From IMG/VR virus record IMGVR_UViG_3300010998_001290: a DNA stretch of 20,090 nucleotides; one strand, 5' to 3'. The translations under genes were made by a program, and so were the position numbers. Source of the stretch: a virus. Its lineage: Duplodnaviria > Heunggongvirae > Uroviricota > Caudoviricetes. Numbering within the stretch: the stretch's first letter is position 1; every line of letters starts with the position of its first letter. The notes beneath the pieces are model-generated. The model was not told where the DNA came from. It was given only the letters and a program-made list of their open reading frames with translations, and did no database searches. Positions 1 through 20,090 of this stretch are shown one piece after another.

Positions 1-717
1 ATGAGGATAGAACACGGAGTTGTTACAGAAATAACAAAGTCGGATGTACACGATAATCAGCTTATTTTTCCCGAAGAAGCATCTTCGATAGCTGCCGATA
101 TATCTGATTTGTTGAACAGCAGAGCGTCAGAGAAGATCAAGCACGTTGATTTCCGTAATGTTCAAACGCTGGAAAGCATAAGACTTAACAATCCCGGATT
201 ATGGGAGCCGGTAACACTATATAAAATAGCACCTCACGCAATAACGGTAAGAATGCCTGAAATAAACAATATAGCACAAAAATTTGCATTAGCAATGAAA
301 AACCTTGAAGAGGTATATGCGCCTTGTTTGACGTCTGTACCGATAATGGCTTTTTCAAATTGTCCAAAGCTAAGGTTGTTTTCATCTTCTCACTTTTTGC
401 GCGAAATAAAAAGTAGCTCCTTTTTTAAGAGCTATAGCTTAAGTAAGTTTATTGGGCTTAATCTAAACAATGTCAATATGGAACCTGTTTGGATAAGCGT
501 GGGCGTAACCTACAGTGTTGAGTGCGGCACGAATATCAGGAATTTTATATGCGTGCGAGATAACAATCGGAAAGATATATATTCGGATCATTCTGCTGAA
601 TATGTACAGATAATTGAGCCGGAACCTCCGAAATCCAAAATCTATGTATTAAAGGACGGAGGGTATTCATCGTATGCCGGTCTGTATTTCCAGACGGCAG
701 CCGATATTTTCAAGTAA
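1..717 (+). CDS. BspA/LRR_5-type leucine-rich repeat protein, paralog 1 (short, 238 aa)
   Basis: N-cap MRIEHGVVTEITKSDVHDNQLIFPEEASSI, VDFRNV motif, LRR-like AFSNCPKLR, C-terminal EYVQII...IYVLKDGGY shared with the other paralogs. RBS lies outside the window. Confidence 0.8.
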   Translation: MRIEHGVVTEITKSDVHDNQLIFPEEASSIAADISDLLNSRASEKIKHVDFRNVQTLESIRLNNPGLWEPVTLYKIAPHAITVRMPEINNIAQKFALAMKNLEEVYAPCLTSVPIMAFSNCPKLRLFSSSHFLREIKSSSFFKSYSLSKFIGLNLNNVNMEPVWISVGVTYSVECGTNIRNFICVRDNNRKDIYSDHSAEYVQIIEPEPPKSKIYVLKDGGYSSYAGLYFQTAADIFK

Positions 718-736
718 TTAAAAAGGAGAAGATGAA

Positions 737-1180
737 ATGTATAATACGAAAAATGAGTTAGCGCAGGAGCTTTTAAGAACATTAGAGTTTAGTCCCATAC
801 TTAAGGAAATCAAAGGTGTGGGCGACTCTGTGTACGGGAAACTTGGCTCAGGCGTTTTAGTCAAGATCAAGATGATAGATCCGAGAACAACCGGATGCTA
901 TTCTGCTGTTGAAATCAAGATGCTGAACCCGATGGAAGGTGAGATTGATAAGGCGAGAATAGACTTTTATTCTGTATGGGGTGAAAAAAGTCGAGCAGGT
1001 ACTCCGCAGATGCGCATAGAGAATTTCCAGAAGAAGTGGAATTTTCCGCTCACCGGAAAGGATTATGCGGTTTTATGCGAGGCTATTGACACTTATCTGA
1101 AGTTTTTTTTGATGAAAGGAAATGAATATGAAAATAGAAGATGGATTGGTGATAGATGCATCACCGGAAGATATTGTTGA
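737..1180 (+). CDS. Hypothetical protein
   Basis: 147-aa ORF with AAGGAG RBS; no recognised motif. The 3' end overlaps the next ORF (53 nt from its likely 1128 start). Confidence 0.7.
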   Translation: MYNTKNELAQELLRTLEFSPILKEIKGVGDSVYGKLGSGVLVKIKMIDPRTTGCYSAVEIKMLNPMEGEIDKARIDFYSVWGEKSRAGTPQMRIENFQKKWNFPLTGKDYAVLCEAIDTYLKFFLMKGNEYENRRWIGDRCITGRYC

Positions 1181-2069
1181 TGGCGTCTTAAGGTTTCCCG
1201 ATGAAGCCAAAAGGATTCAACCTGAATTCTTTAAGGGAATCAACAGTATTACGATAGCAGGAAAAGGAAGAGAAGTTAAAACGGTTGATTTTAACAATGT
1301 TGAGTATCTTTCAAAGGCATACGTGGCATGGGGCATTGGAATTTTTAGTCATATTTTTCCAAACGCCTGCGTGGTTATCGCGCCAAAGCTAAAGATTGTC
1401 CCTTGTGCCTTTTTTGAAGGTTTTTTAGGGGCAGATGCAGAAAATAAGCTGACAAAAGTCGTGCTTTCGGAAGCAGAAACCGTAGGCGAAAAGGCTTTTT
1501 ATTGTGCAAGAGCGCTAAATTCAGTTTACCTTCCGAAAGTAAAATCTATAGGTCTTGAGGCATTTAGATATTGTTATAATCTTAAAACACTGGATGTGTG
1601 CTCATCTATCACAATAGAAGCGATGGCATTTGCCAACTCAGGGGTTGAATGGATCGACTGCGGCACGGCTACAGTTGACAGGAATGTTTTTGGTTCTGGG
1701 CTGAAGACACTTAGGATAAATAACATATCCCAGCTGCACAAGCTTTCAGTCTATGATTGCAATTCGTTAGAAGCTATCATACTTAAAGAAGCGGTTAACG
1801 GCAAGAGAAAGAAGTTCCCTTATACATTTAGCGGTAAAACATACCGTATAGTTTTAGGGTACGAACAATTTGAATGCTATTCAAATCATTCCGAAGATGC
1901 TTGTGCTTATAAGGTTTCTCAGTCCTTTGAGATAGGAGATAAGAAATTCGCTCAAGTCTATTGCTTAGATACAGGCGGCTATTTTGCCAAAACAGACACA
2001 GCGTTAAGTCACAAGCTTCTCACAGAAGAAGAGATGTTTAAATGGCTGAAGTCGCAGGGCGTGATATAA
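1128..2069 (+). CDS. BspA/LRR_5-type LRR protein, paralog 2
   Basis: Repeats such as VGEKAFYCARALNSVYLPKVKSIGLEAFRYCYNLKTL. Start moved from 1122 to ATG 1128 (AAAGGA 7 nt upstream; matches the family N-cap MKIEDG). Confidence 0.9.
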   Translation: MKIEDGLVIDASPEDIVDGVLRFPDEAKRIQPEFFKGINSITIAGKGREVKTVDFNNVEYLSKAYVAWGIGIFSHIFPNACVVIAPKLKIVPCAFFEGFLGADAENKLTKVVLSEAETVGEKAFYCARALNSVYLPKVKSIGLEAFRYCYNLKTLDVCSSITIEAMAFANSGVEWIDCGTATVDRNVFGSGLKTLRINNISQLHKLSVYDCNSLEAIILKEAVNGKRKKFPYTFSGKTYRIVLGYEQFECYSNHSEDACAYKVSQSFEIGDKKFAQVYCLDTGGYFAKTDTALSHKLLTEEEMFKWLKSQGVI

Positions 2070-2105
2070 CAATGATTGATGAGAACAATCAAGAAAGGAG
2101 AATTA

Positions 2106-3059
2106 ATGGTAATTGATGAATATGGCGAAGTTATACGGCTGGAATCTTCCGACCTGAAGGGAAATATACTGACTTTTCCTGATGAAGCGAAGAAAATCAG
2201 CTTTTTAGTTTGGAATTACAATATGGACGAATATAATGCTTCGGGAATACATACAATCAACTTCAATAATATAGAGACAATAGTGAATGAGTGCGGAAGT
2301 TACTTTGCAGAACATTTTCCAAATGTAACTAAGGTCATTGCACCGAAATTACAGTTAGTTCCCAGATATATGTTTAGTAATAATGTAATGATATTTAGTA
2401 ATAATGTAATGATACATAGCAAACTGAAAGAAGTGTATCTAATGGAAGCTAAGGTAATAGGACAGGCAGCGTTTGCAGATACGGCAGCGCTTGAGTATGT
2501 TTATGCTCCTAAAGCTGAAACAATATGCAATTATGCTTTCGGACAAAGCTATGTACAGAAAATAGAGTTAGGTGCAATAAAAAATATACATAACGAAGCG
2601 TTCTATCAGTCTGACATAGAAGAGATTGATTGCAATTATGCAAACGTAGGAGCTAAGGCATTTATGTACAGTCATTTGAAAACAATCAAACTTAACTCTA
2701 TATCACAATTGAACCCGACAGCTTTAAACGATTGTAAAGAGTTTTCTCGGATAGAAGTTCAGAAGCCGGTTTCAAAAGCAAAATCAAAGTTTCCGTATGT
2801 ATGCGAGGGTCAACCCTACACCATAGTTGCTCCGGATCGGACATTTGAGTGCATATCGTCTTTCTCGGAAGATCATTGCGCTCATGAGCTGATACAGAAG
2901 ATATACAGGGCGAATGAAGAGTATTCTGCATATATATACTGTCTTAAGGACGGAAGATATTGTGCGACCTCCTTTATTGGCAATATGATGTCAATAAGCC
3001 CGATATTCGAGACCATTGATAAGGTTATAGGATGGCTTGAAAAAGGGAGAAAAATATAA
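2106..3059 (+). CDS. BspA/LRR_5-type LRR protein, paralog 3
   Basis: IGQAAFADTAALEYVYAPKAETICNYAF repeats; C-terminal IYCLKDGRY. Start moved from 2076 to ATG 2106 behind AAAGGAG. Confidence 0.9.
   Translation: MVIDEYGEVIRLESSDLKGNILTFPDEAKKISFLVWNYNMDEYNASGIHTINFNNIETIVNECGSYFAEHFPNVTKVIAPKLQLVPRYMFSNNVMIFSNNVMIHSKLKEVYLMEAKVIGQAAFADTAALEYVYAPKAETICNYAFGQSYVQKIELGAIKNIHNEAFYQSDIEEIDCNYANVGAKAFMYSHLKTIKLNSISQLNPTALNDCKEFSRIEVQKPVSKAKSKFPYVCEGQPYTIVAPDRTFECISSFSEDHCAHELIQKIYRANEEYSAYIYCLKDGRYCATSFIGNMMSISPIFETIDKVIGWLEKGRKI
2373..2414 (+). repeat. Exact 21-bp tandem duplication, in frame (FSNNVMI x2)
   Basis: TTTAGTAATAATGTAATGATA at 2373-2393 and 2394-2414. Confidence 0.95.
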
Positions 3060-3080
3060 AGAACAACACCACAAATACAG

Positions 3081-3109
3081 AAAAGGGGCTTCGGCTCCTT
3101 TTTTGTTTT
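3081..3109 (+). terminator. Intrinsic terminator (element copy A)
   Basis: AAAAGGGGC-TTCG-GCTCCTTTT stem with C(UUCG)G loop followed by TTGTTTT. Confidence 0.9.
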
Positions 3110-3159
3110 GTCTTACGGTATTTCATACTAATATCAGCAATACTTTCTGATGAATGGAG
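3103..3159 (+). promoter_or_regulatory. Repeated promoter/operator/leader element, copy A
   Basis: TTGTTT 3103-3108, 17 nt, TACTAA 3126-3131, GATGAATGGAG 3149-3159. Confidence 0.65.
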
Positions 3160-3173
3160 AAAGAGGTGAATTT

Positions 3174-3614
3174 ATGAACATTGAAGAAATTATTGTAATG
3201 AACAGGAATGAAGCGGTAAAGTACGCTCATACACAGCATTCCGAGAAAGCGATGATGATATCCATAAACGACATCGGCTCTGGCACGAAAGTGATGAAAA
3301 CGACTGCAAATGGTATATTCGCATTGCTTAAGCTCCAGTTTGACGACGTTGAGGATCCCGATATCAATGCTATTACTGAAAAAGACGCTGACCTTATTGC
3401 AAAGTTCGTTAAGAACAATGTTGATAATGCGGACAGGATAATAGTACATTGCAGTGCTGGAATCTCAAGATCAGCAGGCTGCGCGGCGGCTATTATGAAG
3501 TATCTTTACGGTGATGACAGTAAGATTTATGACTGTGCAAAGTATAGACCTAACAGTACTGTGTACAGGAGAGTTTTAAACGCTATGGTCGGAAAGGATT
3601 TCCCTCAAAATTAA
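3174..3614 (+). CDS. Cys-dependent (PTP/dual-specificity-type) phosphatase
   Basis: Catalytic P-loop IVHCSAGISRS (HCX5R) with an upstream FDD acid loop. Start likely ATG 3174 behind GAGGTG (ORF track start 3150). Confidence 0.85.
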   Translation: MNIEEIIVMNRNEAVKYAHTQHSEKAMMISINDIGSGTKVMKTTANGIFALLKLQFDDVEDPDINAITEKDADLIAKFVKNNVDNADRIIVHCSAGISRSAGCAAAIMKYLYGDDSKIYDCAKYRPNSTVYRRVLNAMVGKDFPQN

Positions 3615-3705
3615 AACAAATCTGCGAAAGACTAAGAGTTTACTTAGGACGACTTCCCGATGTTTGGGAATTTGAAGCAAGAAGGTTATAAGGAGAAATT
3701 ATTAT

Positions 3706-4407
3706 ATGAAAAATGTCAATTTTCCCTATAATATGATTGAAGAAATACAGCATGGCTGGAAAGGTGTAAAATACTGGAGACATATACAGGATGCGTATGG
3801 CGAAACTCCGTTGACAGACGATTTGGGAGGCACACTGTTGTACTTTATTTACGAAGAGTTACCTAAAGACCTAAGCAAGCTCTTTATCCAGAAGTACGTA
3901 ATGGGAAAATCATATAATGAAATTCAAGAGGAATTAGGAATTTGTGATGTAAAAAAGGAACTTGCAAAGGGATACGAGATTCTACTTCCCAAAATTGTCG
4001 CATGCTCTGAAGTTCTTTATTTAGGTCTAAAGAAGAATAAGCGCAGCTTATGGGATTACCGAACAGGTTATTATGCTGCACTCGACGATCTACGAAAGGT
4101 TGTGACACAAAAAAATCTGAGCATTGATGCAATAAAAAAGGCGGCAGGGATAGAGGATAATTCGGAGAAAAAAGTTAAAGTGTTTGGGAATGCTAAGTTA
4201 AACTCGGACATAAATGTACTCGGTTTACCAAATGTAATCCATAACGCTTTACGCCGGAATGGAATAAATACTGTTTCGGAGTTAGTTTCACTGAGTCGTC
4301 AAGATATAAACAACATAAACGGAATCGGCTGTTACTATACCGTGAAAATAATTAAAAGCATTGATGAATATTTAGGATGCACCCCAAAAGGGTGGGAAAA
4401 GCCATAA
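3706..4407 (+). CDS. Protein with sigma70 region-4-like HTH and C-terminal RNA polymerase alpha-CTD-like domain
   Basis: C-terminus INVLGLPNVIHNALRRNGINTVSELVSLSRQDINNINGIG follows the alpha-CTD HhH pattern. The middle segment LPKDLSKLFIQKYVMGKSYNEIQEELG resembles sigma region 4. AAGGAG RBS. Confidence 0.7.
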   Translation: MKNVNFPYNMIEEIQHGWKGVKYWRHIQDAYGETPLTDDLGGTLLYFIYEELPKDLSKLFIQKYVMGKSYNEIQEELGICDVKKELAKGYEILLPKIVACSEVLYLGLKKNKRSLWDYRTGYYAALDDLRKVVTQKNLSIDAIKKAAGIEDNSEKKVKVFGNAKLNSDINVLGLPNVIHNALRRNGINTVSELVSLSRQDINNINGIGCYYTVKIIKSIDEYLGCTPKGWEKP

Positions 4408-4424
4408 ATAAAAGGAGAAAAACT

Positions 4425-5021
4425 ATGGGGCACGCTTGTGGAATACTTACTTTCGACACACAGGACAGAAATATGATAAGGACGGAATGCGACCGCTGGG
4501 CTGCGTCCAATGCTGATTACGAGGAAACTCGCGGCATGGGCACTCTTCCCGGACCTATCAAGTTTACGAGCTTGATATTTGACACATACAGAGAGGCTGA
4601 AGAGTACCTTGATGGAACATTCGGGGACTATCGACAGACCGCTGTACAGTATAGGTCTTATCCTGAAGCTCCTGCTGAAACTAAGGCTATACAGGACTTG
4701 ACTCGCCGCTGTAATGAATACAGAGAGCGGATAAGGGAGCTTGAAAAGCCACACTATGCAGGGGTGTCTTCAAAGACTGTGAAGTGTAAGAAATGCGGTT
4801 CTTCTTTGTCTACCGAATACTGCGGTAAAACGTGGTACAACAATTGTCCGGTTTGTAGAACGGAGTTGAGACCTCGGACAACCATTGACAAGATAGTCAA
4901 ATATAAGACTGCCATCAATGAGCTTGAGAAAAAGAGGCAGGAAGAAGAGAAGAAACAGCTGCTTAAGCAGAAGGCAAAGTCCAAGCTCAAATGGGCTGTT
5001 GCCTGCGAAGTACATTGCTGA
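4425..5021 (+). CDS. Zinc-ribbon and coiled-coil hypothetical protein
   Basis: CKKC...CPVC pair flanked by charged helical segments. Start ATG 4425 behind AAAGGAG (ORF track start 4377). Confidence 0.7.
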   Translation: MGHACGILTFDTQDRNMIRTECDRWAASNADYEETRGMGTLPGPIKFTSLIFDTYREAEEYLDGTFGDYRQTAVQYRSYPEAPAETKAIQDLTRRCNEYRERIRELEKPHYAGVSSKTVKCKKCGSSLSTEYCGKTWYNNCPVCRTELRPRTTIDKIVKYKTAINELEKKRQEEEKKQLLKQKAKSKLKWAVACEVHC

Positions 5022-5042
5022 AAGGTAAGAAAGGAAGCTAAA

Positions 5043-5465
5043 ATGAAGAAGCTCTTCAATACAACGCAGAGCGATTTGCGTAAGTATAATGGAGAAATCG
5101 TTGAAGTAGGCGATGAGCTTACTGACGAAGAAAGAGATCCTGAAGTCGGAAGAATGTGGCGTATAACCTTTTCTGACGGCGGCTGGACAGATGCATTCGA
5201 AGATGAACTGAACGATTTACCGGAAGGAGAAAATGACATGAATAAGAAGTATTACTATGATTTCGGCTATTTTTTCAGCAGAAAGGAAAGCGGCAGCTGC
5301 CGTGTAACCCTTGACACCGACCTTGGTGACAGTGACATCGATGTCGATGAGGCTATATCTGTGGCACTTAAGGCGGGCGAACTCGATGAAGAGTACGCAG
5401 ATAACATCGTGTATGTAGAGAAGCTTACTGAAGAGGAAGCTAAGGAAATGGGGTTTGAGATATGA
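5043..5465 (+). CDS. Acidic hypothetical protein, possibly two fused small genes
   Basis: 140-aa ORF with AAAGGA RBS; internal GAAGGAG plus in-frame ATG at 5238. Confidence 0.7.
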   Translation: MKKLFNTTQSDLRKYNGEIVEVGDELTDEERDPEVGRMWRITFSDGGWTDAFEDELNDLPEGENDMNKKYYYDFGYFFSRKESGSCRVTLDTDLGDSDIDVDEAISVALKAGELDEEYADNIVYVEKLTEEEAKEMGFEI

Positions 5466-6025
5466 TCCTGTATCACGGCACAGATTACGAGTCGGCTCTG
5501 AGTATAATGGACAACGGATTTAACAATCCGAACACTGTATGGTTGTGCTCTGAAGCTGATAAGACTTATCTGGTTGAAGAAAAAGGCAATGACGGCGAGG
5601 CATTACGCTTCGCCTTCGAAGCCGGACAGATAGCTGCGGCGAATAAGGGTTCAACTAATTCTTCTGTAGGAATCATCAGAATAGAAATGTCTGATAAGAC
5701 CGCAGACGAAGAGCTTTACCCTGACAATTCGTGTGAGAATATGACGGATTGCTGGCAGATAGACTCTGACAGGCTCAATCAGCTTGCAGACGAGGGCAAA
5801 GTGATAATATCACTTGGAATATGCGAAAACGCTTATAATCCGAACCTTAGACCGTTCTATCTTGCAACGCTTTCAAGTGAACACTACAAGGCTGTTGATG
5901 ACCCGCAGCTTGAAGAAGCGATAGAAATCGTTTCACGGTGCGGGGATTTTCCTCTGGAAGACGTTATCGGATACCTTGAAGTAGACAGCTTTGACGAAAT
6001 CTTTAAGTATAAGATCACTGCTTAA
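5462..6025 (+). CDS. Putative ADP-ribosyltransferase-fold protein
   Basis: N-terminal LYHGT...SIMDNGF resembles the first catalytic strand of PARP/ART-like domains; ATGA overlap with the upstream gene. Downstream catalytic residues were not confidently located. Confidence 0.45.
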   Translation: MILYHGTDYESALSIMDNGFNNPNTVWLCSEADKTYLVEEKGNDGEALRFAFEAGQIAAANKGSTNSSVGIIRIEMSDKTADEELYPDNSCENMTDCWQIDSDRLNQLADEGKVIISLGICENAYNPNLRPFYLATLSSEHYKAVDDPQLEEAIEIVSRCGDFPLEDVIGYLEVDSFDEIFKYKITA

Positions 6026-6044
6026 GAAATAGGAGGATTTTATT

Positions 6045-6587
6045 ATGCAGCACATTATAGGAATTACAATCGACGGGATCAACTACAGCGCGATGGTGTC
6101 TAAGAACGATGAGTTCTATTTAGCAGGAGGCAGCCTTTACGCTACTGTCGGCATCTGGAGCGATACAGAAGACGGTGAGCCTAAGGGAGCTTCGCTCATC
6201 ATATTCGATATGGATACGATGGACGCTGTTTACGGCGAAAAGCTCGATGACTATGTCACCGGCGATGTTGATCCGAAGATGGAGAGACTGAACGATATAC
6301 TTGTTCAGGAAAGGATATTAAGATATGTCGCATCTCGTAATGCCGACAATAAGAACGGCGGTAACGCGAATGCGGACGATGACGACAGCGGCGAAGATAA
6401 AGATTACTACGTTACTTTCGCGGCAAACGTGAGATATGTGGCGGCTGTAAGAGCCTCCTCTCTTGAGGAAGCGAAGAAGTTCGCTCAGAACGACTTTGAG
6501 GCTGCCTGCTTCGGCAAGCTGGAGTTCGTTGACAGTGACCTTATAATGGTCGAAGACGAAGACGGCAACTATCTCTACGAAAAGTAA
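6045..6587 (+). CDS. Acidic hypothetical protein
   Basis: AGGAGG RBS. The C-terminal YYVTF...VRASSLEEAKKFA is weakly reminiscent of DpnD/PcfM-like small domains. Confidence 0.7.
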   Translation: MQHIIGITIDGINYSAMVSKNDEFYLAGGSLYATVGIWSDTEDGEPKGASLIIFDMDTMDAVYGEKLDDYVTGDVDPKMERLNDILVQERILRYVASRNADNKNGGNANADDDDSGEDKDYYVTFAANVRYVAAVRASSLEEAKKFAQNDFEAACFGKLEFVDSDLIMVEDEDGNYLYEK

Positions 6588-6602
6588 TCGGAAGGAGTAC
6601 AT

Positions 6603-7007
6603 ATGATACAGACATTATCAATACCACAGTGCAATCCGGCAGAATTCGATAAGGTGTTCCTTGTCGTGAGGAGCATATCTATTCTTGAAAAGAGAAAGGA
6701 TAAAATCCTTGACTCTGCGGAGCAGCTCGCTTGCCTTAGCCCCTCTAAGAAGTTGTTCTTCCAGTACCGCGATTGGGTCAAAGAAGGCAACTGGAACCTT
6801 AATACATTCAATGATAAGTATGTTCCTTGGTTCCTCCGCGATATATCTGCGGACAAAGAGGCACAGGAATGGCTTGACAGACTTGCTGCCGAGGAAAAGG
6901 ACAATAAAATAGCCCTCCTCTGCTTCTGCAAGGATAAGGCGCTGTGTCACAGGACAATTATCGGCAAGATGCTTGTTGATAGAGGCTGTAATGTCATAAT
7001 CGACTAA
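6603..7007 (+). CDS. DUF488-family protein
   Basis: LSPS..L, then F...Y, then IALLCFCKDKALCHRTII (the LLC...CHR signature). AAGGAG RBS. Confidence 0.7.
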   Translation: MIQTLSIPQCNPAEFDKVFLVVRSISILEKRKDKILDSAEQLACLSPSKKLFFQYRDWVKEGNWNLNTFNDKYVPWFLRDISADKEAQEWLDRLAAEEKDNKIALLCFCKDKALCHRTIIGKMLVDRGCNVIID

Positions 7008-7018
7008 AAACAAAGCAG

Positions 7019-7054
7019 TTTGTACACACCTGTCTTGTGACGGGTGTGTACAAA
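7019..7054. repeat. 16-bp-stem inverted repeat (hairpin or bidirectional terminator)
   Basis: TTTGTACACACCTGTC-TTGT-GACGGGTGTGTACAAA, with one G:T pair. Confidence 0.85.
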
Positions 7055-7072
7055 ATAATGAGAAAAAAGAAA

Positions 7073-7119
7073 CAACTACCCACCACTGAAGTAGTGGGAT
7101 TGCGAAACAATCGGGTTGA
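7073..7119 (+). mobile_element. Truncated IS200/IS605-type end (IscB omega-RNA/HEARO-like 5' segment)
   Basis: CAACTACCCACCAC-TGAA-GTAGTGGGATTG-CGAAA-CAATC-GGGTTGA resembles, from memory of the family, the (GT)CAACTACCC...hairpin...GGG(C)TTG...CAA(G)C...GGTTGA layout. No tnpA, tnpB or iscB is adjacent. Confidence 0.5.
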
Positions 7120-7140
7120 ATTGACAAGAAAGGACACGAA

Positions 7141-7932
7141 ATGAAAATACTTTATATTCAGAAATGGAACAAGAAAACCGGGTATCACGATGTAGGATAC
7201 GCTATATCTGATGAAGGCGAGAAGAGCTACGGTGACTATACAGGACGCTTTATCTCCTACATAGACGACGGTAATGTAGTCTCTATCAACGCGGATTGCC
7301 TTGACAAGACAGTCGTTAATATCGAGGATGAGATCATAACCGTTAAGATGCACTCCAGAAAGTGCGATAAATCGACGTTTATGAGGAAGGTCGCTGCTGT
7401 TATCGCCGAATATCAGGAAGATTATCTGAAGTCTGACTTTGGATTATTCATCAGTAGAGCGACAGAAGCTAATAGGCGTAAAACGGATAAGGATATCAGA
7501 GAGGCATATGAAGACCTCAGGGTAAACACTCCGTTTAAGCCCTACAAGATAGAGACGATAAAGCGCACCTACGGCAAAGGCAGTTATATGTATCGCTTCG
7601 CTTGGAATGCTATTGACATGAGCTTTGCGGTAGATAAGATGGCAATCCTTGACGGCTGGAATGGCGTGTTTACCATACAGGATGGCAGCTCAAAGAGGTC
7701 TACCCGCGAGGTAAGGGAAGACACAATCGGTCGTATTTTCGAGGGAACCGGCTTCGATACCTACTGGATGTACAGCATATCGGATGATATAACGTCGTTC
7801 AAGGAAGCTGTATTTGAAAAACTGAAGCTCAACGCAAAGCTTATCGAAGATACTAAGAACAAGCTTGACTACTATCTTAAGTGTAATGAAGCGCTTCTCA
7901 AAGGGGTGGAGAGTTCAATCAATAACTCTTGA
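7141..7932 (+). CDS. Hypothetical protein
   Basis: 263-aa ORF with AAAGGA RBS; no recognised motif and no IscB PLMP/HNH/RuvC motifs. Confidence 0.75.
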   Translation: MKILYIQKWNKKTGYHDVGYAISDEGEKSYGDYTGRFISYIDDGNVVSINADCLDKTVVNIEDEIITVKMHSRKCDKSTFMRKVAAVIAEYQEDYLKSDFGLFISRATEANRRKTDKDIREAYEDLRVNTPFKPYKIETIKRTYGKGSYMYRFAWNAIDMSFAVDKMAILDGWNGVFTIQDGSSKRSTREVREDTIGRIFEGTGFDTYWMYSISDDITSFKEAVFEKLKLNAKLIEDTKNKLDYYLKCNEALLKGVESSINNS

Positions 7933-12585: not shown

Positions 12586-12620
12586 GCATATGATTATGCT
12601 GTATGAAAGGACTGGTATTT

Positions 12621-13559
12621 ATGGTTATTAACAATGAAGGTTTAGTTGTAGCGATTGAAGATAAGGATATTGATAAATCTGGGGTACTTTTCTTTCCAGA
12701 AGAAGCGAAAGAGATACATGCGAATAAGTTGACAAATCGTATCTCGAAAAAGGCAAAATCTAAAATTCAGTCAATCGACTTCAATAAGATCATTTTCATT
12801 AATGGAAGTCTTGCAGAGATCATTGGGGCAGCAGAGGCTGCAACGGTAAAGTATATAAATGCTCCGAATTTGGAAATTGTTTCCCTGCATTTATTTGACA
12901 ATTGTAATGAATTGAAAAAAGCTTCGCTTGATACTGCAAAGAGAATAGAAGCGGAATCTTTTTGGAATTGTCAAAATTTGCAGACGATAAACTGCCCTAA
13001 TATTACATTTATAGGGGATAATGCTTTTGCACGGTGTTTCAAACTGAGTTCTTTTGAATTTCCTAAGACACTAAAGAGTATAGGAAAGTATTCTTTCCTT
13101 ATGTCAGGAATAAAAAGTGTTACTATTCCCGAAGGGGCGGTACTGGGAGCATCTTTTGTAGATTGCAAACAGCTTGAAGTTGTGCGTATACATGATTTAA
13201 GCTCAATAAGGAGTACACCACTAACAGAGCCTTTTAAGGGATGCGAAAAGCTTGAGCAAGTGATAGTTGATGAACTTAATACCGATGATTGCTTTCTGCT
13301 GACAAGTGCTATGCACGGATACACTTTGCAGTGTAAGCTCGAAAATGAAACAAAGAGAATATTCTGTTTTTCTGATGAAAACATACTGGACGATGATGTC
13401 GTTGAGGTCACACAGATTATCGGTGATGCAGAGAATGATAAATACACAATCTGTTTGTTATTAGACGGTACATATCGCGTATGCACTAAAAACGAACTCA
13501 GCAGCCCGCTTAAGAACATTGAAGAAATTCAGGAATGGGTTGATGCTTTTTTGAATTGA
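12621..13559 (+). CDS. BspA/LRR_5-type LRR protein, paralog 6
   Basis: IGDNAFARCFKLSSFEFPKTLKSIGKYSF (canonical LRR_5); C-terminal LLLDGTY. Start probably ATG 12621 (ORF track start 12603). Confidence 0.9.
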   Translation: MVINNEGLVVAIEDKDIDKSGVLFFPEEAKEIHANKLTNRISKKAKSKIQSIDFNKIIFINGSLAEIIGAAEAATVKYINAPNLEIVSLHLFDNCNELKKASLDTAKRIEAESFWNCQNLQTINCPNITFIGDNAFARCFKLSSFEFPKTLKSIGKYSFLMSGIKSVTIPEGAVLGASFVDCKQLEVVRIHDLSSIRSTPLTEPFKGCEKLEQVIVDELNTDDCFLLTSAMHGYTLQCKLENETKRIFCFSDENILDDDVVEVTQIIGDAENDKYTICLLLDGTYRVCTKNELSSPLKNIEEIQEWVDAFLN

Positions 13560-13572
13560 AAGTGAGAATATT

Positions 13573-14529
13573 ATGCGAATTAGAATTAACGAAGAGGATA
13601 GGAGTATTATAGTTTTTGAAGCGACAGATATAAAAGATGGGGTTTTTACATTTTCTGATAACGTAGATGAATTTGATCTTGAAGGGTTCGAGTTTACAGA
13701 GGAATTCAGCAAACGTACGTCTGAAGTCAGGATTATTGACTTTTACAATGTTGAAGATGTACTCTGTTATTCAATTATGGGTGGCACATCGATGAATGAA
13801 TTTTGGGATGTTTTTCCGAATCTTGAAGAAGTGCGGGCACCAATGTTGACATATATCGGCGATGGCTTTTTGAAGGATTGCAAAACACTTAAAACAGCGT
13901 ACTTTGATTCCGCAAAAGAAATAGGCTGCGAAAGTTTCAGTGACTGTATTGCTCTTAGAAGGGTATATTGTCCAAAAGTCGAGATAATTGGCAACGAGGC
14001 ATTTTATGAATGCGGCAGTATGCACAGTATATATCTTCCTGACACGCTTAAGGAGATAAGGACAAACGCGTTTATGTGTTCAGGGCTCTATACGATAGAT
14101 ATTCCGAAGAGCGTAAAGCTTTACGACGAGGCTTTCTGTGATTGTGAGCAGTTGAAACATATACGCATGCATGATGTTCGGCAGTTTAACAAAGGAGAAG
14201 CCACAAAAGCGTTCTCGGCTTGTGTAAACCTTAAAACCCTTGAGCTTAATGTGGTCAACAAGAAGGATAGATATCCTTCGGTGGGCAGAGGCTGTATATA
14301 TACTGTAACACACAAAGAAGAGTGTAAAAAGATACTGTGCTTAAATGAAGATGATGCTTATGAGTATGCGCAGATCATATCAGGTATTTCTGAAATAGAT
14401 GGGGGTGCTCTGTATGTTTTGGCAGATGGCGGCTATATTATCAACATTAATGATGGAGAGATTATGACCGGGCATCTTGACAACATAAACGAAGCAAACG
14501 AGTGGATATCAGCCAATATATCGGCATAA
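13573..14529 (+). CDS. BspA/LRR_5-type LRR protein, paralog 7
   Basis: IGNEAFYECGSMHSIYLPDTLKEIRTNAF; C-terminal EYAQII...LYVLADGGY. Confidence 0.9.
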   Translation: MRIRINEEDRSIIVFEATDIKDGVFTFSDNVDEFDLEGFEFTEEFSKRTSEVRIIDFYNVEDVLCYSIMGGTSMNEFWDVFPNLEEVRAPMLTYIGDGFLKDCKTLKTAYFDSAKEIGCESFSDCIALRRVYCPKVEIIGNEAFYECGSMHSIYLPDTLKEIRTNAFMCSGLYTIDIPKSVKLYDEAFCDCEQLKHIRMHDVRQFNKGEATKAFSACVNLKTLELNVVNKKDRYPSVGRGCIYTVTHKEECKKILCLNEDDAYEYAQIISGISEIDGGALYVLADGGYIININDGEIMTGHLDNINEANEWISANISA

Positions 14530-14533
14530 CAAC

Positions 14534-14570
14534 AAAAAGAGGCGAGAAATTCGTCTCTTTTTTTTGTTTT
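14534..14570 (+). terminator. Intrinsic terminator (element copy D)
   Basis: AAAAAGAGGCGA-GAAAT-TCGTCTCTTTTT plus T tract. Confidence 0.9.
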
Positions 14571-14620
14571 GTAGTGGCAAATAACATACTATTTATAGTA
14601 TTATAATCAGACGAACGGAG
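14564..14620 (+). promoter_or_regulatory. Repeated promoter/operator/leader element, copy D
   Basis: TTGTTT 14564-14569, 17 nt, TACTAT 14587-14592, perfect ATACTA-TTTA-TAGTAT, GACGAACGGAG 14610-14620. Confidence 0.65.
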
Positions 14621-14656
14621 ACTTTTGGTTGTTGAAGTTCAGAAAGGAAGGTATGT

Positions 14657-15586
14657 ATGGAAGTAAAAGATGGGATTGTTACGAAAATAACAAACGAAGA
14701 TGTTGTTGACGGAAGTCTGGTGTTCCCGGATGACGCTATCGTCATAAAGAATACTGATGTTTCCGAGTTAGACAGCGAGAACATTACCAAGACGGTAAAC
14801 TTTAATAACATAGAAGAAATCGTTTCGTTTAGATTTGTTACAGATTATATAACCAAATCAGCGAGATGTGTGTGTGAACACGCGGAAATTGTCAGAATGC
14901 CCAAACTGCAAATGATAAAAAGAGAACAATTCAGCAATTGTGACATAAAAGAGGTTTATCTTGATACTACTGAGGTTATAGGAAATAAAGCTTTTTACTA
15001 TTGTACACGTCTTACCAAGGTGTTTATGGGTAATTCCCTTAAAACAATAGAAAATGGGGCGTTCATAGGAACGAAAGCGCTGAAGGCAGTTGATATACCG
15101 GAAAGTATAGTTTATATACGAGCTCAGGCGTTTTTTGAGAGTGGAATTAAATCCGTTTCAATTAAGGGTTCACCTGAAATTGATGCAACCGCTTTTAGGA
15201 ATTGTCCTAACCTTAAGCGAATAATGCTTCATTCCTACGACAGTAAGAGGATAAAAATCAGTGCGTTTTTGGAGTGTACGGAGTTGTCTGACATTGTTGT
15301 TTTTACAAAAATATCGGAAAAAACAAAGATGCCTTATATTGGGCACGGACAGATTTATACTGTACTTGAATGTTATAATGGCGTCAGAAATAAAACGATG
15401 TTTATTAATATCATTGATGATAAGACCCAGAAGAGAGATACGGTGAAGATAGTTCAAACACTTGATGTTAACGGCACAATGATATATGTTGTACAGAACA
15501 ACAATTATATCATCAAATCCGGAGACGACATCAAGGTTATGAACAAGGAAGAACTCTTTAGGTTAATGAGAAATGAGGGTATATAA
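14657..15586 (+). CDS. BspA/LRR_5-type LRR protein, paralog 8
   Basis: IGNKAFYYCTRLTKVFMGNSLKTIENGAF; N-cap MEVKDGIVTKITNEDVVDGSLVFP. Confidence 0.9.
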   Translation: MEVKDGIVTKITNEDVVDGSLVFPDDAIVIKNTDVSELDSENITKTVNFNNIEEIVSFRFVTDYITKSARCVCEHAEIVRMPKLQMIKREQFSNCDIKEVYLDTTEVIGNKAFYYCTRLTKVFMGNSLKTIENGAFIGTKALKAVDIPESIVYIRAQAFFESGIKSVSIKGSPEIDATAFRNCPNLKRIMLHSYDSKRIKISAFLECTELSDIVVFTKISEKTKMPYIGHGQIYTVLECYNGVRNKTMFINIIDDKTQKRDTVKIVQTLDVNGTMIYVVQNNNYIIKSGDDIKVMNKEELFRLMRNEGI

Positions 15587-16536
15587 TGATAATTACTGAA
15601 AGATATGGTACCGATGGCATTATGAGAAAGACGGCCACTGATATCGAAGAGAAAGATATTGTTGATAATGTATTGACTTTTCCTCCGGATGTCACTGCTG
15701 TACAGGACTTAAGAGGAAATTATCTCTTCCCGAAAGCTGGAGACGACGTATACAAGATCGACTTTTGTAATGTAGTTGATATAAGTGTTACGAATAAAAA
15801 CTACAATCACATGATATTCAGGCTTTTGCCAAACGCAGAAGTAATAAGCGCTCCTAAGCTCAAAAGAGCATCGGCAAGTGTTTTCGCAAGAAGTCAGGTA
15901 CGTCAGTTAAATCTTCCATCGGTAACGAAAGTTGATAATGAAGCCTTTTTTGAGTGCTATTATCTTGAGGAAGTTGATCTCCGTAATGCTAAAGAGATAG
16001 GAAGTTCTGCTTTTGACTCCTGCCGAAGCCTGCATTCTGTTATTTTCTCTGATTGTTTAGAGAAAATCGAATCTTATGCATTCTCGAAATGTAATAAGCT
16101 CGAAGAGATCAATATTTATGCTGCTATACCGGATGACGCGGCTTTCCACGATTGCTCTGCCCTAAAGGTAATCAAGACAAGCGAGATTGAAATACTTGGA
16201 AGAGGCTGGATAGACACCTGCATGGCACTTCAGCGTATAGAACAAAGTAATGAATTATATCTCCCAGAAATAAGGGTTTTCAAGTTCCCATTAGTAACAG
16301 GAGATAACAACGCACTATACGAATATGAAGTTGCAGCACCTAATGCTACTCTAAAAGTTGTATCCTGTCCGAAAGAGATGCTTGTGTATGAGTATGTGCA
16401 GAGGATAAACAGCGGAAATACGCTTATATATGTTCTCTATGGCGGAGATATGTTCGCAGTAAAATGTGATAACGAAGTCAAAATCTGCAATTTTGAAGAT
16501 ATGCAGGAACTTATAAGGTTTCACAGTCTATTTTGA
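15586..16536 (+). CDS. BspA/LRR_5-type LRR protein, paralog 9
   Basis: IGSSAFDSCRSLHSVIFSDCLEKIESYAFSKC; TAATG coupling to paralog 8. Confidence 0.9.
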   Translation: MIITERYGTDGIMRKTATDIEEKDIVDNVLTFPPDVTAVQDLRGNYLFPKAGDDVYKIDFCNVVDISVTNKNYNHMIFRLLPNAEVISAPKLKRASASVFARSQVRQLNLPSVTKVDNEAFFECYYLEEVDLRNAKEIGSSAFDSCRSLHSVIFSDCLEKIESYAFSKCNKLEEINIYAAIPDDAAFHDCSALKVIKTSEIEILGRGWIDTCMALQRIEQSNELYLPEIRVFKFPLVTGDNNALYEYEVAAPNATLKVVSCPKEMLVYEYVQRINSGNTLIYVLYGGDMFAVKCDNEVKICNFEDMQELIRFHSLF

Positions 16537-16559
16537 AACGTGGAAGAAAGAGGTATATA

Positions 16560-17459
16560 ATGATTATAGAAGATCATGTTGCACGAAAAATAGAGAAAGA
16601 AGATATCACGAGTGATACTTTTGTATTTCCGGATGAAGTCACTGAGGTCTATGCGGATGTAACAGAAATCACTGAGATTGCTCAGCGCATAAAAACTGTA
16701 GACTTCAATAATGCTGAGGATATAAAGTTTATCGTGTTAGGAGCTGCGACCTCCAAAATCGATGTTTTTGCGCCTAATGCAGAGAACATCATATTCCCAA
16801 AGGGTAAATCTTTGTTTAATGCCAATTTTATGGACAATAAAAGCATAAAAAGGGTTGAAGCAGTCAATGCCGAAATGGTGGAATATAGGGCATTTTCAGG
16901 TTGCAATAACCTTGAAACGGCAATTGTACCAAATTGTATAAATATTCGTGATGATGCTTTTTGTGGTACTTCACTAAAGAAGATCGTGTTTTCAGACGAT
17001 ATTCTCTATATTGGAGCAAGAGCTTTTTATTCGTCGCTAATATCGACAATGGATGTTCATAACGCAAAATGTTCATCATACGCATTTACAAAAAGTTCCA
17101 TTGAATGTCTTAAGGTAAATTCATTAAGCAAACTGAATAGATGTGCATTACAAGGATGCAGCTCACTAAAGCAGATAGAAATAAACGGTAAACTACCTCG
17201 GTCCAATAAGGGTAATTACTATCCCAATATAGGACGAGGACATGAATACAACGTTATGTCTACAATAAGTAAGAACAAGATAAATGTTGTATGCGGCACA
17301 TATACACATACATATTCGCAAAAAATGGAGTATGAGGGGAAAACTCCTGATAAGAGTTTCCTGCTCTATGCGTTAACAGACGGACGATATTATATTGTAT
17401 CTGATTGTATCGAAACAGTCACTGATATAGACGGGATAAACGCTTTTCTGCATATCTGA
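16560..17459 (+). CDS. BspA/LRR_5-type LRR protein, paralog 10
   Basis: AFSGCNNLETAIVPNCINIRDDAFCG; C-terminal LYALTDGRY. Start ATG 16560 behind AAAGAGGT (ORF track start 16533). Confidence 0.9.
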   Translation: MIIEDHVARKIEKEDITSDTFVFPDEVTEVYADVTEITEIAQRIKTVDFNNAEDIKFIVLGAATSKIDVFAPNAENIIFPKGKSLFNANFMDNKSIKRVEAVNAEMVEYRAFSGCNNLETAIVPNCINIRDDAFCGTSLKKIVFSDDILYIGARAFYSSLISTMDVHNAKCSSYAFTKSSIECLKVNSLSKLNRCALQGCSSLKQIEINGKLPRSNKGNYYPNIGRGHEYNVMSTISKNKINVVCGTYTHTYSQKMEYEGKTPDKSFLLYALTDGRYYIVSDCIETVTDIDGINAFLHI

Positions 17460-17470
17460 CAACCAAAAAT

Positions 17471-17507
17471 ACAAAAAAGGGGCTATATATGGCTCCTTTT
17501 TTGTTTT
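17471..17507 (+). terminator. Intrinsic terminator (element copy E)
   Basis: ACAAAAAAGGGGC / GCTCCTTTTTTGT 13-bp stem; the 3' arm GCTCCTTTTTTGTTTT is identical to copy A. Confidence 0.9.
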
Positions 17508-17558
17508 CCTTCGTAAAACAGCATACTAATTATAGATTTTATTAACTGACGACCGGAG
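17501..17558 (+). promoter_or_regulatory. Repeated promoter/operator/leader element, copy E
   Basis: TTGTTT 17501-17506, 17 nt, TACTAA 17524-17529, GACGACCGGAG 17548-17558. Confidence 0.65.
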
Positions 17559-17606
17559 ATAAGTTGAAGGTTAATTCGTACATAAATTGCATAAGGAGGG
17601 AATATA

Positions 17607-18542
17607 GTGAAAATCATAGACGGAAAGCTGGTTCAGATAGATTCAAAGGATATCTCCTTGAATGGGACGCTAAGGTTTCCTGAAGAACTGACAGAACTGG
17701 AAATAATACTGGACGAACTCGTCATTGATGAGAAAGATAAGGGAAGAATAAAGAGTTTAGAGCTTGAAAAATTGACAAAATGTCAAGTGCTAAAGCGTGG
17801 ACAGATGGTCAAGGGTTATCAAAAGACGTCGTTTTCAGAGATTGCGCCTACCTTGGCTGCGGTCAGAGCAAAAGAACTGTTGGAGATTGAGTCTTGGATG
17901 TTTTACAAATGTGAAAAGCTTGGACTTGTATGGGCTCCAAAAGCAACAAATGTGAGGTCTCACGCTTTTGAGGGGTGCGGCAAATTAGAGCATTTTTCGG
18001 CGCCTTCATTGAAAAGGATAGGGCTTAAGGCTTTCTACGGGTGCTCAAGCCTATACCATATGACTATCCCGGAAGGTGTTGAATATATTTCAGCGAACGC
18101 CTTTACCAACAGCGGACTCAATGAAATAGAGCTTACAGGTAATGTCGAGGTAAAGATGCACGCCTTTCAGTACTGCATAAACGCCGAAACAGTAAGGCTA
18201 CGTTCTTTTGAGAAGATAGATATGCACGCATTCGATTTGTGTATGAATATCAAGGAGTTTATACTGTCCGAGGATTATGAGAAGAGCAAGAGCTATAAAC
18301 TTCCATTCATCACCGGCGGGTACTTGTACACATACAAAGTCTCGCACAAAGACAAGCATATGAATATTATATGTTTCAGGAGAAGTGGGATGGAATGTAC
18401 TTCGGAGTATGTCCAGCAAATCGACTGCAACGGAAAAAGCATTTATATGTTGGCTGACGGAGAATATATAGTGAAAACCACCAACGACTATTGCTTTGTT
18501 TCAGACTCAGAGGCTTTGAAAAAAGCTCTTTACGACGAATAA
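17607..18542 (+). CDS. BspA/LRR_5-type LRR protein, paralog 11
   Basis: IGLKAFYGCSSLYHMTIPEGVEYISANAF; C-terminal EYVQQI...IYMLADGEY; GTG start behind AAGGAGG. Confidence 0.92.
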   Translation: MKIIDGKLVQIDSKDISLNGTLRFPEELTELEIILDELVIDEKDKGRIKSLELEKLTKCQVLKRGQMVKGYQKTSFSEIAPTLAAVRAKELLEIESWMFYKCEKLGLVWAPKATNVRSHAFEGCGKLEHFSAPSLKRIGLKAFYGCSSLYHMTIPEGVEYISANAFTNSGLNEIELTGNVEVKMHAFQYCINAETVRLRSFEKIDMHAFDLCMNIKEFILSEDYEKSKSYKLPFITGGYLYTYKVSHKDKHMNIICFRRSGMECTSEYVQQIDCNGKSIYMLADGEYIVKTTNDYCFVSDSEALKKALYDE

Positions 18543-18556
18543 GAAAAGAAGTATGT

Positions 18557-19489
18557 ATGAAATTAGAAGGAAATGTAGCCGTTTTTGAACAGGACGATAT
18601 GTGTAAAGAGCGTCTGATAGTTCCACCGGCGGCAAAAAAGGTTCGGTTCACATTATACGATATTCCGAGTGCCGGAAAGTCATTTAGCAAAATACGGGAA
18701 ATTGATTTCGGAAATGCTGAAGAGATCGAGATCCTTGACAAAGATGTTTTGGGGAATGTTATAGATTGTTCTATCTGTAGAGCAGCAGAGAAAATAGAAC
18801 ACATATTCGGACAAAAGCTAAAGAAAGTACCTGCCGGCGCTTTCATCTCGTGTAAGATGTTAAAGACCGTTATACTTCCCGAAGTCGATGAGATTGGCGA
18901 TGACGCTTTTAATTGGGACGACAAGCTTGAAATGATAACCGTTCCTAAAATCAAGAGAATAGGAGCGAGAGCGTTTGCAAACTGCAACAGACTTAGCAGG
19001 TTCAAGTTTCCTAAAGAGCTTCAGCAGATCGGAATGAGCGCCTTTTTTAACTCAGGCATAAGGAACATTGAAATTCTCGGAGATACCATAGTTGCAGATA
19101 GAGCTTTTAGCCAATGCAACGAGCTGGAGAAAGCAAACTTAAAAGACGCTGAAAATATCAGCGAGTGTGCTTTTGAGGGTTGTTCGCATCTTCACTATAT
19201 CAAATTAGAAAAGAATAGCAGCATCCGAGGGCGTGTCTTTTCTGCTGCGTATGATTATTGCCTTGACATATCTGGCGATAAACACTTCTACGTCAGCAAG
19301 CTGGGTAAGTATTATGAGTACTGCCAAAAGATCATTCAGGATGACATTGGGGCAGCTTATATTTTAAAAGACGGAAGGTGCTTGATATGGATGGTAAACG
19401 CCATTGTTTACAAAGGCGAAGATACGAATAAGATATTGTTTGACGATGCGCTTATCGCCATAAAAACAATGAATGCAAGTGTAAGCTAA
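18557..19489 (+). CDS. BspA/LRR_5-type LRR protein, paralog 12
   Basis: IGARAFANCNRLSRFKFPKELQQIGMSAF; C-terminal EYCQKI...AYILKDGR. Start ATG 18557 (ORF track start 18491). Confidence 0.9.
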   Translation: MKLEGNVAVFEQDDMCKERLIVPPAAKKVRFTLYDIPSAGKSFSKIREIDFGNAEEIEILDKDVLGNVIDCSICRAAEKIEHIFGQKLKKVPAGAFISCKMLKTVILPEVDEIGDDAFNWDDKLEMITVPKIKRIGARAFANCNRLSRFKFPKELQQIGMSAFFNSGIRNIEILGDTIVADRAFSQCNELEKANLKDAENISECAFEGCSHLHYIKLEKNSSIRGRVFSAAYDYCLDISGDKHFYVSKLGKYYEYCQKIIQDDIGAAYILKDGRCLIWMVNAIVYKGEDTNKILFDDALIAIKTMNASVS

Positions 19490-19500
19490 CCTTCAGCTAT

Positions 19501-19538
19501 AAACAAAAAGGGACTCTTAAAGGGTCTCTTTTTGTTTT
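19501..19538 (+). terminator. Intrinsic terminator (element copy F)
   Basis: AAACAAAAAGGGACTC-TTAAA-GGGTCTCTTTTTGTTT 16-bp stem. Confidence 0.9.
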
Positions 19539-19590
19539 GTTGGCTATTCTTGTATACTATATTAAAGTAGTATTATTCAGACGAACGGAG
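19532..19590 (+). promoter_or_regulatory. Repeated promoter/operator/leader element, copy F
   Basis: TTGTTT 19532-19537, 17 nt, TACTAT 19555-19560, GACGAACGGAG 19580-19590. Confidence 0.65.
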
Positions 19591-19626
19591 TATTCGGGTA
19601 ATCATTTGACAGGAAAGGAAGGAAAA

Positions 19627-20090
19627 ATGATAATAGAAGGAACAACGCTTGTGGATTTTGATGTGGCAGAATTCGGCAGCGAGGAATTGACTATACCGGA
19701 TAATGTGACTGAAATCAACACAAGAATAAAATTGACAGGGAAACCCAATAAAACGGTAAAGGTACTGAACCTGAACAATGTGAAAAGTGTATTTGTAGAA
19801 GCGGAAATGGAAAAAGGCGGGGTTATTAAGGATCTTGTAGGTCTTTCTCCTATTTTCAGCGGGGTTACTAAGGTGATAGCCCCTGAACTGGAGACGATAC
19901 CTAAGCGCTTTTTTGAGAGAAGGGCATCGCTTACCACTCTTATTGTACCTAAAGCGAAGATAATTGAGGATTATGCTTTTACCGGGTGCAAAAATCTCAA
20001 GGAGATACAGATAGGCAGTGCGGAGATTATAGGAAATGAGGTCTTTTCAAGAGCTGCTGTCGAGAAAATTGAATTTTCTGATAACATCAA
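19627..20090 (+). CDS. BspA/LRR_5-type LRR protein, paralog 13 (3'-truncated by the window edge)
   Basis: Translated by hand (not in the ORF track): MIIEGTTLVDFDVAEFGSEELTIPDNVTEI...LNLNNV...IAPELETIPKRFF...IIEDYAFTGCKNLKEI; AAAGGAAGG RBS. Confidence 0.85.
   Translation, partial: MIIEGTTLVDFDVAEFGSEELTIPDNVTEINTRIKLTGKPNKTVKVLNLNNVKSVFVEAEMEKGGVIKDLVGLSPIFSGVTKVIAPELETIPKRFFERRASLTTLIVPKAKIIEDYAFTGCKNLKEIQIGSAEIIGNEVFSRAAVEKIEFSDNI

Follow-up and report, generated by a model that had tools for sequence, protein, structure and literature searches.

Large eukaryotic DNA viruses carry families of repeat proteins that set host range and counter immunity: ankyrin-PRANC proteins in poxviruses, leucine-rich repeat (LRR) proteins in entomopoxviruses, and LRR and FNIP/F-box proteins in mimivirus-like viruses. 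In bacteriophages, to our knowledge, large repeat-protein families are hardly described. Here we analysed a stretch of viral DNA of 20,090 nucleotides (the window; IMG/VR record IMGVR_UViG_3300010998_001290), which corresponds to bases 290-20379 of the 301,622-bp metagenomic contig Ga0139362_1000266 (JGI 3300011008); in total, 29.5 kb of this contig were read. The region encodes 18 paralogous LRR proteins (LRR01 to LRR18), which we interpret, with a probability of roughly 45%, as a lineage-specific multigene family of soluble, non-exported binders with an intracellular role, carried by a phage-like element of about 300 kb of ruminant-gut, Firmicutes-type hosts. The repeat type is well known, and BspA-like expansions are known in Trichomonas: the BspA-like family of Trichomonas vaginalis counts 911 genes, with a transmembrane (TM) domain in only 193 of the 911 (PMC2843621). 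In Goslar, 10 paralogs of the DUF7941 module, some of them fused to LRR or beta-helix heads, are found in virions and have been proposed to form a fiber cloud for host recognition (bioRxiv 10.64898/2026.04.21.720040). LRR proteins go unmentioned in a comparative overview of 224 jumbo phages (PMC7824862), and in the literature we found no description of phage LRR_5/BspA paralog arrays.

The family shares with the BspA/TpLRR proteins (TpLRR, 6mlx; BACCAC_03700, 4fd0; BACOVA_01565, 4fdw) the repeat pattern L..V.IP..V..IG..AF..C..L and the solenoid fold. Unlike them, it is devoid of signal peptide, lipobox, Ig-like, dockerin, T9SS and LPxTG elements, has a private hairpin cap and a private C-terminal domain, and forms a tandem set of 18 on a phage-like element. 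It resembles the Trichomonas set in being an expanded, highly diverged group of TpLRR type, mostly with no recognisable sorting signal; that set, however, belongs to a eukaryote, is scattered over its genome and varies in architecture, with a surface location shown for at least one member, whereas the family described here is small, uniform, in tandem and located in a prokaryotic mobile element. With the repeat families of eukaryotic viruses it has in common many diverged, tandem, signal-less binders near a genome end, built of variable repeats and a constant small C-terminal part. Those viruses, by contrast, have eukaryotic hosts and their proteins are linked to ubiquitin through F-box or PRANC, whereas the C-terminal domain found here matches no known adaptor, and the "end" here is that of a contig and need not be that of the genome. 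Similarly, the DUF7941 family of Chimalliviridae (Goslar gp22, gp23, gp86, gp92 and gp161) combines a shared module with varied heads and has no signal peptides; however, DUF7941 oligomerises, sits at the N-terminus and occurs in virions, whereas the LRR family has no DUF7941 and has the LRR part itself as its common body. As for NLR and STAND proteins, neither a NACHT or NB-ARC domain nor an effector domain was found in the family, LRR_5 being its sole family match.

Translation and alignment gave 13 paralogs on the + strand of the window, 12 of them complete and LRR13 cut by the window end. On the source contig LRR13 is followed by five further paralogs (LRR14-18), the last of which ends at window-equivalent position 25821. 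The 18 genes of the region form two blocks, one of three (LRR01-03, 1-3059) and one of 15 consecutive genes (LRR04-18), split by a non-LRR block of 7.3 kb (3150-10446). All 18 reading frames are intact, and about 17 kb of DNA, more than 5% of the 301.6-kb contig, is spent on the family. The genes within the window are the following:

LRR01, 1-717, + strand: 238 aa; starts exactly at base 1; LRR_5 match 22 bits
LRR02, 1122-2069, + strand: 315 aa; LRR_5 E 2.6e-12
LRR03, 2106-3059, + strand: 317 aa; LRR_5 E 2e-12; terminator 3077-3106 after the gene
LRR04, 10570-11451, + strand: 293 aa; LRR_5 E 1.3e-15; opens the 15-gene block; terminator 10457-10488 upstream
LRR05, 11477-12403, + strand: 308 aa; LRR_5 E 1.7e-22
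LRR06, 12621-13559, + strand: 312 aa; LRR_5 E 9.3e-19
LRR07, 13573-14529, + strand: 318 aa; LRR_5 E 6.6e-21; terminator 14534-14562
LRR08, 14657-15586, + strand: 309 aa; LRR_5 E 7.9e-24; the paralog that was modelled
LRR09, 15586-16536, + strand: 316 aa; LRR_5 E 1.8e-19; start overlaps the LRR08 stop
LRR10, 16560-17459, + strand: 299 aa; LRR_5 E 9.6e-21; terminator 17471-17504
LRR11, 17607-18542, + strand: 311 aa; GTG start; assigned by alignment and by PF13306 in the source gene calls
LRR12, 18557-19489, + strand: 310 aa; assigned by alignment and by PF13306 in the source gene calls
LRR13, 19627-20090 (window end), + strand: full length of 308 aa on the source contig

An earlier note on this DNA, made from the letters alone, had described 13 co-oriented genes of one architecture, in an array open at both window edges. 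The translations, the alignment and the shared anchors agree with the gene count and the common architecture, and the array does run on beyond the right edge. At the left edge LRR01 is the first gene: only a terminator-promoter cassette lies upstream of it and the contig ends 289 nt away, which places the paralog region near one end of the contig. Nor is the array continuous, since other genes occupy 3150-10446. It is split into units of two or three genes by strong intrinsic terminators, located at 3077, 10457, 14534 and 17471, after which comes a conserved promoter-like box. Each array transcription unit is headed by a 60-nt intergenic cassette composed of a T-run, a CATACTA..TAGTA box and the motif GA(C/T)GAA(C/T)GGAG; copies after terminators were found at 3100-3159, 10481-10540, 12526-12585 and 14561-14620, and one more at 170-240 in a further stretch, L137.

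All 18 proteins have a common layout, namely a beta-hairpin N-cap, BspA/TpLRR-type (Pfam LRR_5) repeats and a C-terminal domain of about 85 residues made of a beta-sheet plus a helix. LRR_5 (PF13306, gathering score 27.7 bits) was matched by all ten paralogs scanned, nine of them above the gathering score (E 2.6e-12 to 7.9e-24, 47-84 bits) and the tenth, LRR01, under it with 22 bits; PF13306 is also listed for LRR04-18 in the gene calls of the source, and weak NCBIfam matches to the adhesin HupY/LrrG were recorded. The consensus of the alignment contains the motifs MxIExGxVxxI...DIxDGxLxFPD, IDFNNVExI, PNxxxVxAPKL and, at the C-terminus, EYxQxI...IYxLxDGxY, which include every anchor motif named before. 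Two copies depart from the usual length: LRR01 keeps the N-cap and the C-terminal domain and has about 4-5 repeats fewer, and LRR15, of 397 aa, has four extra repeats.

To describe the fold, LRR08 was modelled with AlphaFold2 on the paralog alignment (pLDDT 94.4, pTM 0.90). The model opens with an N-terminal beta-hairpin, continues from about residue 20 as a solenoid with a strand every ~22 residues, and closes with a six-stranded antiparallel sheet plus a terminal helix (residues ~230-307). Its parts were delimited as follows:

LRR08 residues 1-~95: N-cap and irregular repeats
LRR08 residues ~96-221: regular LRR_5 repeats
LRR08 residues 222-309: C-terminal beta domain and helix

Among solved structures the best match was 4fd0 (Z 18.4, rmsd 4.4, 228 aligned), followed by 4fdw (Z 17.9) and 6mlx (Z 17.6, rmsd 3.4, 186 aligned), and Foldseek likewise pointed to BspA-like Bacteroides proteins and TpLRR; the model shows the solenoid of ~22-23-residue repeats of the solved TpLRR/BspA-like structures, and the LRR_5 fold is that of surface adhesins. 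On the basis of the model and of these matches, the "N-cap", "DFNN" and "FPN...APKL" anchors are degenerate first repeats of the solenoid and not a separate domain. A homodimer prediction for LRR08 returned a score of 0.00, which is no answer and no evidence either way.

The C-terminal domain is found in all copies, the truncated LRR01 and the expanded LRR15 included, and folds with a pLDDT of 91.3 when modelled alone (LRR08 222-309). We found no published description of it. It matched no Pfam family consistently, the weak matches being each confined to one copy (best E 0.0056), and fold searches with the domain alone gave nothing convincing: VIA, best Z 5.0 over 45 residues with rmsd 2.3; AFDB, E of at least 0.08; Foldseek against the PDB, E of at least 0.28; Atlas, TM of about 0.5. 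Across the 18 copies one Tyr and one Gln are invariant and one Gly is near-invariant (at least 90% of copies), and the mean column identity is 24%, no better than in the rest of the protein. Since only these three residues are (near-)invariant, an enzymatic role of the domain is unlikely. In 126 fetched loci a profile of the domain picked up the orthologs and nothing else; in 399 Clostridia-class genomes it gave only chance-level matches of 14-17 bits in open reading frames (ORFs) outside the LRR family, which is not proof of absence.

The paralogs are 17-36% identical in pairs (mean 24%), and their maximum-likelihood tree is star-like, with terminal branches of ~1.9 changes per site, in line with the previous impression that they are hyper-diverged outside the anchors. 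Only two pairs were resolved in the tree, LRR02/LRR03 (99/97) and LRR06/LRR07 (86/85); both consist of adjacent genes and are therefore a footprint of tandem duplication. Apart from the intergenic cassette and short stretches that encode motifs, the copies share no DNA repeats, which rules out recent gene conversion and a diversity-generating retroelement; as for the latter, no reverse transcriptase was found in the 29.5 kb and no long DNA repeats near the genes.

To see how the genes evolve at present, we used syntenic orthologs on two contigs from other samples, ENA ERZ28654209 (LRR08-10) and Logan SRR33674992 (LRR08-12). The complete genes are 93-96% identical to ours (94-96% for LRR08), and pairwise dN/dS is 0.13-0.39 in every pair tested, being 0.32-0.39 for LRR08, 0.26-0.31 for LRR09, 0.19-0.26 for LRR10 and 0.13 for LRR11. 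Analysed by part, it stays at 0.15-0.30 throughout, whether for the N-terminal region, the LRR repeats or the C-terminal domain. Judging from these comparisons each copy is functional and constrained, and the sequences give no sign of a currently hypervariable face, although pairwise averages could miss a few positively selected sites. Between paralogs, variability at exposed repeat positions is the same on one face as on the other (entropy 2.2-3.0 bits), a measure that is saturated and uninformative at 24% identity. The diversified recognition face put forward in the earlier note was thus not recovered, neither as diversifying selection nor as a hypervariable face; uniform purifying selection with no variable face, which the same note had listed as an argument against its own proposal, is arguably the situation at the strain level. 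Within the orthologs of 14657-18542, dS is 0.08-0.18 for the N- and C-terminal parts but drops to 0.04-0.07 across the LRR repeats, a contrast that could stem from strains having recombined in mosaic fashion or from a constraint on the RNA or DNA itself.

As regards location, the hydropathy and charge of the sequences revealed no signal peptide, TM segment or anchor in any copy. The N-termini are neutral to acidic, with neither a positively charged n-region nor a hydrophobic h-region, and the highest 19-residue Kyte-Doolittle window does not exceed 1.66. The Pfam scan returned only LRR_5, with no dockerin, LPxTG or other anchor domain, and the export and anchoring features of BspA-like surface adhesins are absent from the family. 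A purine-rich ribosome-binding site precedes each of the aligned ATG or GTG codons, and the N-termini align from Met1; because these sites lie before the aligned starts, longer upstream extensions of the ORFs are not used. The lack of signal peptide, LPxTG, dockerin and TM anchor remarked on at first reading is thereby confirmed, and surface localisation, which would have spoken against a cytoplasmic family, is not predicted by hydropathy or charge.

The stretch 10500-19500 is partly present in 19 runs from 11 other studies besides the probable source run, which makes 20 runs and 12 studies in all, labelled as bovine, sheep or gut metagenome; the family is thus common enough in ruminant-gut data to be studied. 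When contigs of four runs were aligned with the window, LRR04-LRR12 were collinear on one 25.8-kb contig. In contigs of other ruminant-gut runs, differences between strains were found at several places: 714-2166 (ORF 737-1180 plus LRR02) is replaced by 113 nt in two DNA runs (X2 and X5), the middle of LRR01 (110-590) by 457 unlike bases in two other strains, 3611-4343 by 60 nt, and the intergenic 116 nt at 7007-7124 by 413 nt. In one ruminant-type metatranscriptome run (X20), contigs cover 27 of the 30 bins of the window (1-20000), several LRR genes among them; given that DNA carry-over is possible, we take this as a hint of expression and make no claim of transcription.

The full architecture was not found outside this lineage in word-based searches, phage GenBank records, IMG/VR and GTDB genomes, all of limited sensitivity. 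The word-based searches (up to 100 words each) gave only near-identical orthologs (n=4) as full-length relatives, a weak negative, and a search with a single paralog gave nothing in IMG/VR and, in GTDB genomes, only generic LRR_5 proteins matching the repeats. A profile of the full-length alignment produced 435,535 matches among 1.84 billion representatives, swamped by giant multi-repeat LRR_5 proteins and therefore uninformative on the private domains. In none of these searches did the same array appear as conserved chromosomal core of a cellular lineage, a finding that the earlier note had named as one that would refute its proposal.

In order to place the family in its genomic setting, we considered the block nested between the two sets of LRR genes, which comprises:

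DSP-type phosphatase, 3150-3614, + strand
sigma4/alpha-CTD protein, 3706-4407, + strand: 233 aa; alpha-CTD-like C-terminus (Pfam 5.6e-9) and weak sigma-70 region 4 match
DUF488 protein, 6603-7007, + strand
DarG-like macro domain, 7980-8495, + strand: 171 aa; PADLOC 1.8e-11, NCBIfam 1e-9, PHROG 335 "phosphatase" 3.9e-23
RtcB RNA ligase, 9256-10446, + strand
six other genes, within 3150-10446, + strand: no family or only an unnamed PHROG family

The sigma4/alpha-CTD gene is the one removed by the replacement of 3611-4343, and it is dispensable, since it is absent from contigs of three other strains, each from a different run. The macro-domain gene lies three genes after that of the DUF488 protein and two genes before RtcB, with a 213-aa ORF in between, and its product is a candidate reverser of DarT-type DNA ADP-ribosylation. 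The nearest relatives of the RtcB protein are in phages, with up to 62% identity; in the IMG/VR phages carrying the closest RtcB no member of the LRR family was found. The 213-aa ORF and RtcB (8566-10442) are 90% identical at the DNA level to 322-2201 of a 4.9-kb metagenome contig, with unrelated sequence on both flanks, and seem to move between elements as a unit. The RtcB of that contig is 89% identical and is not followed by LRR genes. The contig had been considered as a relative lacking the array; BLAST led us to reject it, as only the two-gene RtcB module is shared and the flanks differ, and for the same reason it is silent on gain or loss of the array. Across the window G+C is 39-45%, GC skew is steadily positive and nearly all long ORFs are on the + strand, and 3' of LRR18 lie small ORFs, an N6-adenine methyltransferase gene and an RNase H gene. 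On the whole this neighbourhood resembles the part of a very large phage genome that serves accessory functions, host interaction or counter-defence, and the phage- or plasmid-like element proposed earlier can now be described as a large phage-like mobile element.

With the family, its fold and copy number, the absence of sorting signals, the selection regime and the conservation among strains directly established, we infer a binding function, an intracellular site of action and a link with counter-defence. The copies would derive from old tandem duplication, followed by divergence over the whole exposed surface, each one retaining a rigid BspA/TpLRR-type solenoid between the beta-hairpin cap at its N-terminus and the ~85-residue domain at its C-terminus. 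The proteins would be made in the infected cell from the terminator-promoter units of the element, would remain in the cytoplasm and would bind different macromolecules of the host or of rival elements for takeover or counter-defence, the constant caps providing a scaffold and perhaps also the attachment point of a single common partner. Because the whole exposed surface has diverged while each copy is under purifying selection, we think of about 18 binders of differing specificity and not of redundant copies. This reading is compatible with the lack of export signals, with the gene neighbourhood and with the analogy to the repeat families of large eukaryotic viruses. The RtcB, DarG-like macro and DUF488 genes are typical of phage counter-defence and RNA repair, and the nested block links the LRR family to counter-defence weakly, by association. 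From the compact cytoplasmic recognition repertoire imagined at the outset, the compact, soluble, signal-less scaffold is retained and diversifying selection is not. If intracellular, the proteins would amount to a ready-made set of natural inhibitors or adaptors directed at proteins of the host, together with a new small domain. A more specific form of the proposal, in which a huge phage inherits some 18-19 intracellular binders, each for a different host or rival protein, and the shared C-terminal domain leads to one common fate of the target, be it blocking, degradation or relocation, we consider rather unlikely; it would give bacteriophages an equivalent of the host-range families with ankyrin repeats or F-boxes known from poxviruses and giant viruses.

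On the other hand, several observations weigh against intracellular binders. LRR_5 proteins of known role are extracellular adhesins, and the LRR proteins annotated in other phages (BFVD) are mostly large and structural-looking (surface or tail). A missing signal peptide is no proof of intracellular action, as virion proteins, put together in the cytoplasm and freed when the cell lyses, are also without signals. No region has a dN/dS near or above 1, a poor fit to a current arms race, even if pairwise averages are a weak test. The association with RtcB and the macro domain is weak evidence, the RtcB module being itself mobile between elements, and no capsid or terminase gene was found in the 29.5 kb read of this phage-like element. 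Some of these facts would suit virion-borne or lysis-released adhesins, that is, accessory recognition heads fixed to the particle via the N-cap or the C-terminal domain, which would give one phage many surface specificities for host range or for retention on fibre, mucus or cells. The adhesin fold with its HupY/LrrG matches, the large surface or tail LRR proteins of BFVD, the Goslar paralogs with LRR or beta-helix heads found in virions and the dispensability of signal peptides in phage structural proteins all agree with it, and stable orthologs under purifying selection fit a fixed receptor set. However, the gene neighbourhood is one of RNA repair, ADP-ribose and regulation, not of structural functions; the parts that would serve for attachment show no more conservation than the remainder of the protein (24% for the C-terminal domain), which is unusual for one docking partner; and the proteins are small, single-domain-sized units lacking the elongated trimeric shafts usual in fibres. 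We therefore hold this explanation to be doubtful, though it is the strongest competitor of intracellular binding; if correct, it would show how one gut phage displays many specificities.

Within the favoured reading of intracellular binders, a special case is that of substrate adaptors, in which the variable LRR part picks the target and the C-terminal domain passes it to a shared machine, either a host protease or chaperone or an enzyme encoded by the element, the closest parallel being the ankyrin-PRANC/F-box and LRR/FNIP-F-box families. Variable repeats are joined to a constant small terminal domain in 18 of 18 copies, even in LRR01 and LRR15, the domain folds independently, with Gln and Tyr invariant and Gly near-invariant in an otherwise free surface, and the structural neighbours include members of the LRR and FNIP/F-box families from giant viruses and entomopoxviruses. 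Nevertheless, Pfam and fold searches brought out no likeness of the domain to F-box, PRANC or other known adaptors, no gene for a candidate partner came to light, and the pTM of 0.90 for the whole protein suggests a domain packed on the solenoid as a cap and not a free handle, which makes adaptors an unlikely special case. As a germline collection of varied LRR modules carried by a mobile element, the family also recalls NLR-like sensors, encoded by the element to guard it or the host cell against competing phages or plasmids; yet no copy has an NTPase, TIR, nuclease or other effector domain besides LRR_5, four paralogs gave no PADLOC match and the C-terminal domain has no conserved residues of catalytic type, and we judge such a function very improbable. 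Least credit of all goes to the idea that a sticky repeat scaffold without any specific function has expanded neutrally or is decaying: the extreme divergence, the shortened LRR01 and the absence of LRR02 from some strains would fit it, but the intact frames of all 18 genes, the dN/dS of 0.13-0.39 in all ortholog pairs tested and the synteny across studies speak against it, and purifying selection largely refutes it.

Finally, two small proteins accompany the array. One is encoded by the ORF at 737-1180 (147 aa), located between LRR01 and LRR02 and overlapping the start of LRR02 by 59 nt, and the other, of 133 aa, by a gene just after the array (18122-18523 in a further stretch, L016). Neither has a family match, and the two are weakly alike (23% identity over 71 residues, E 2e-5).

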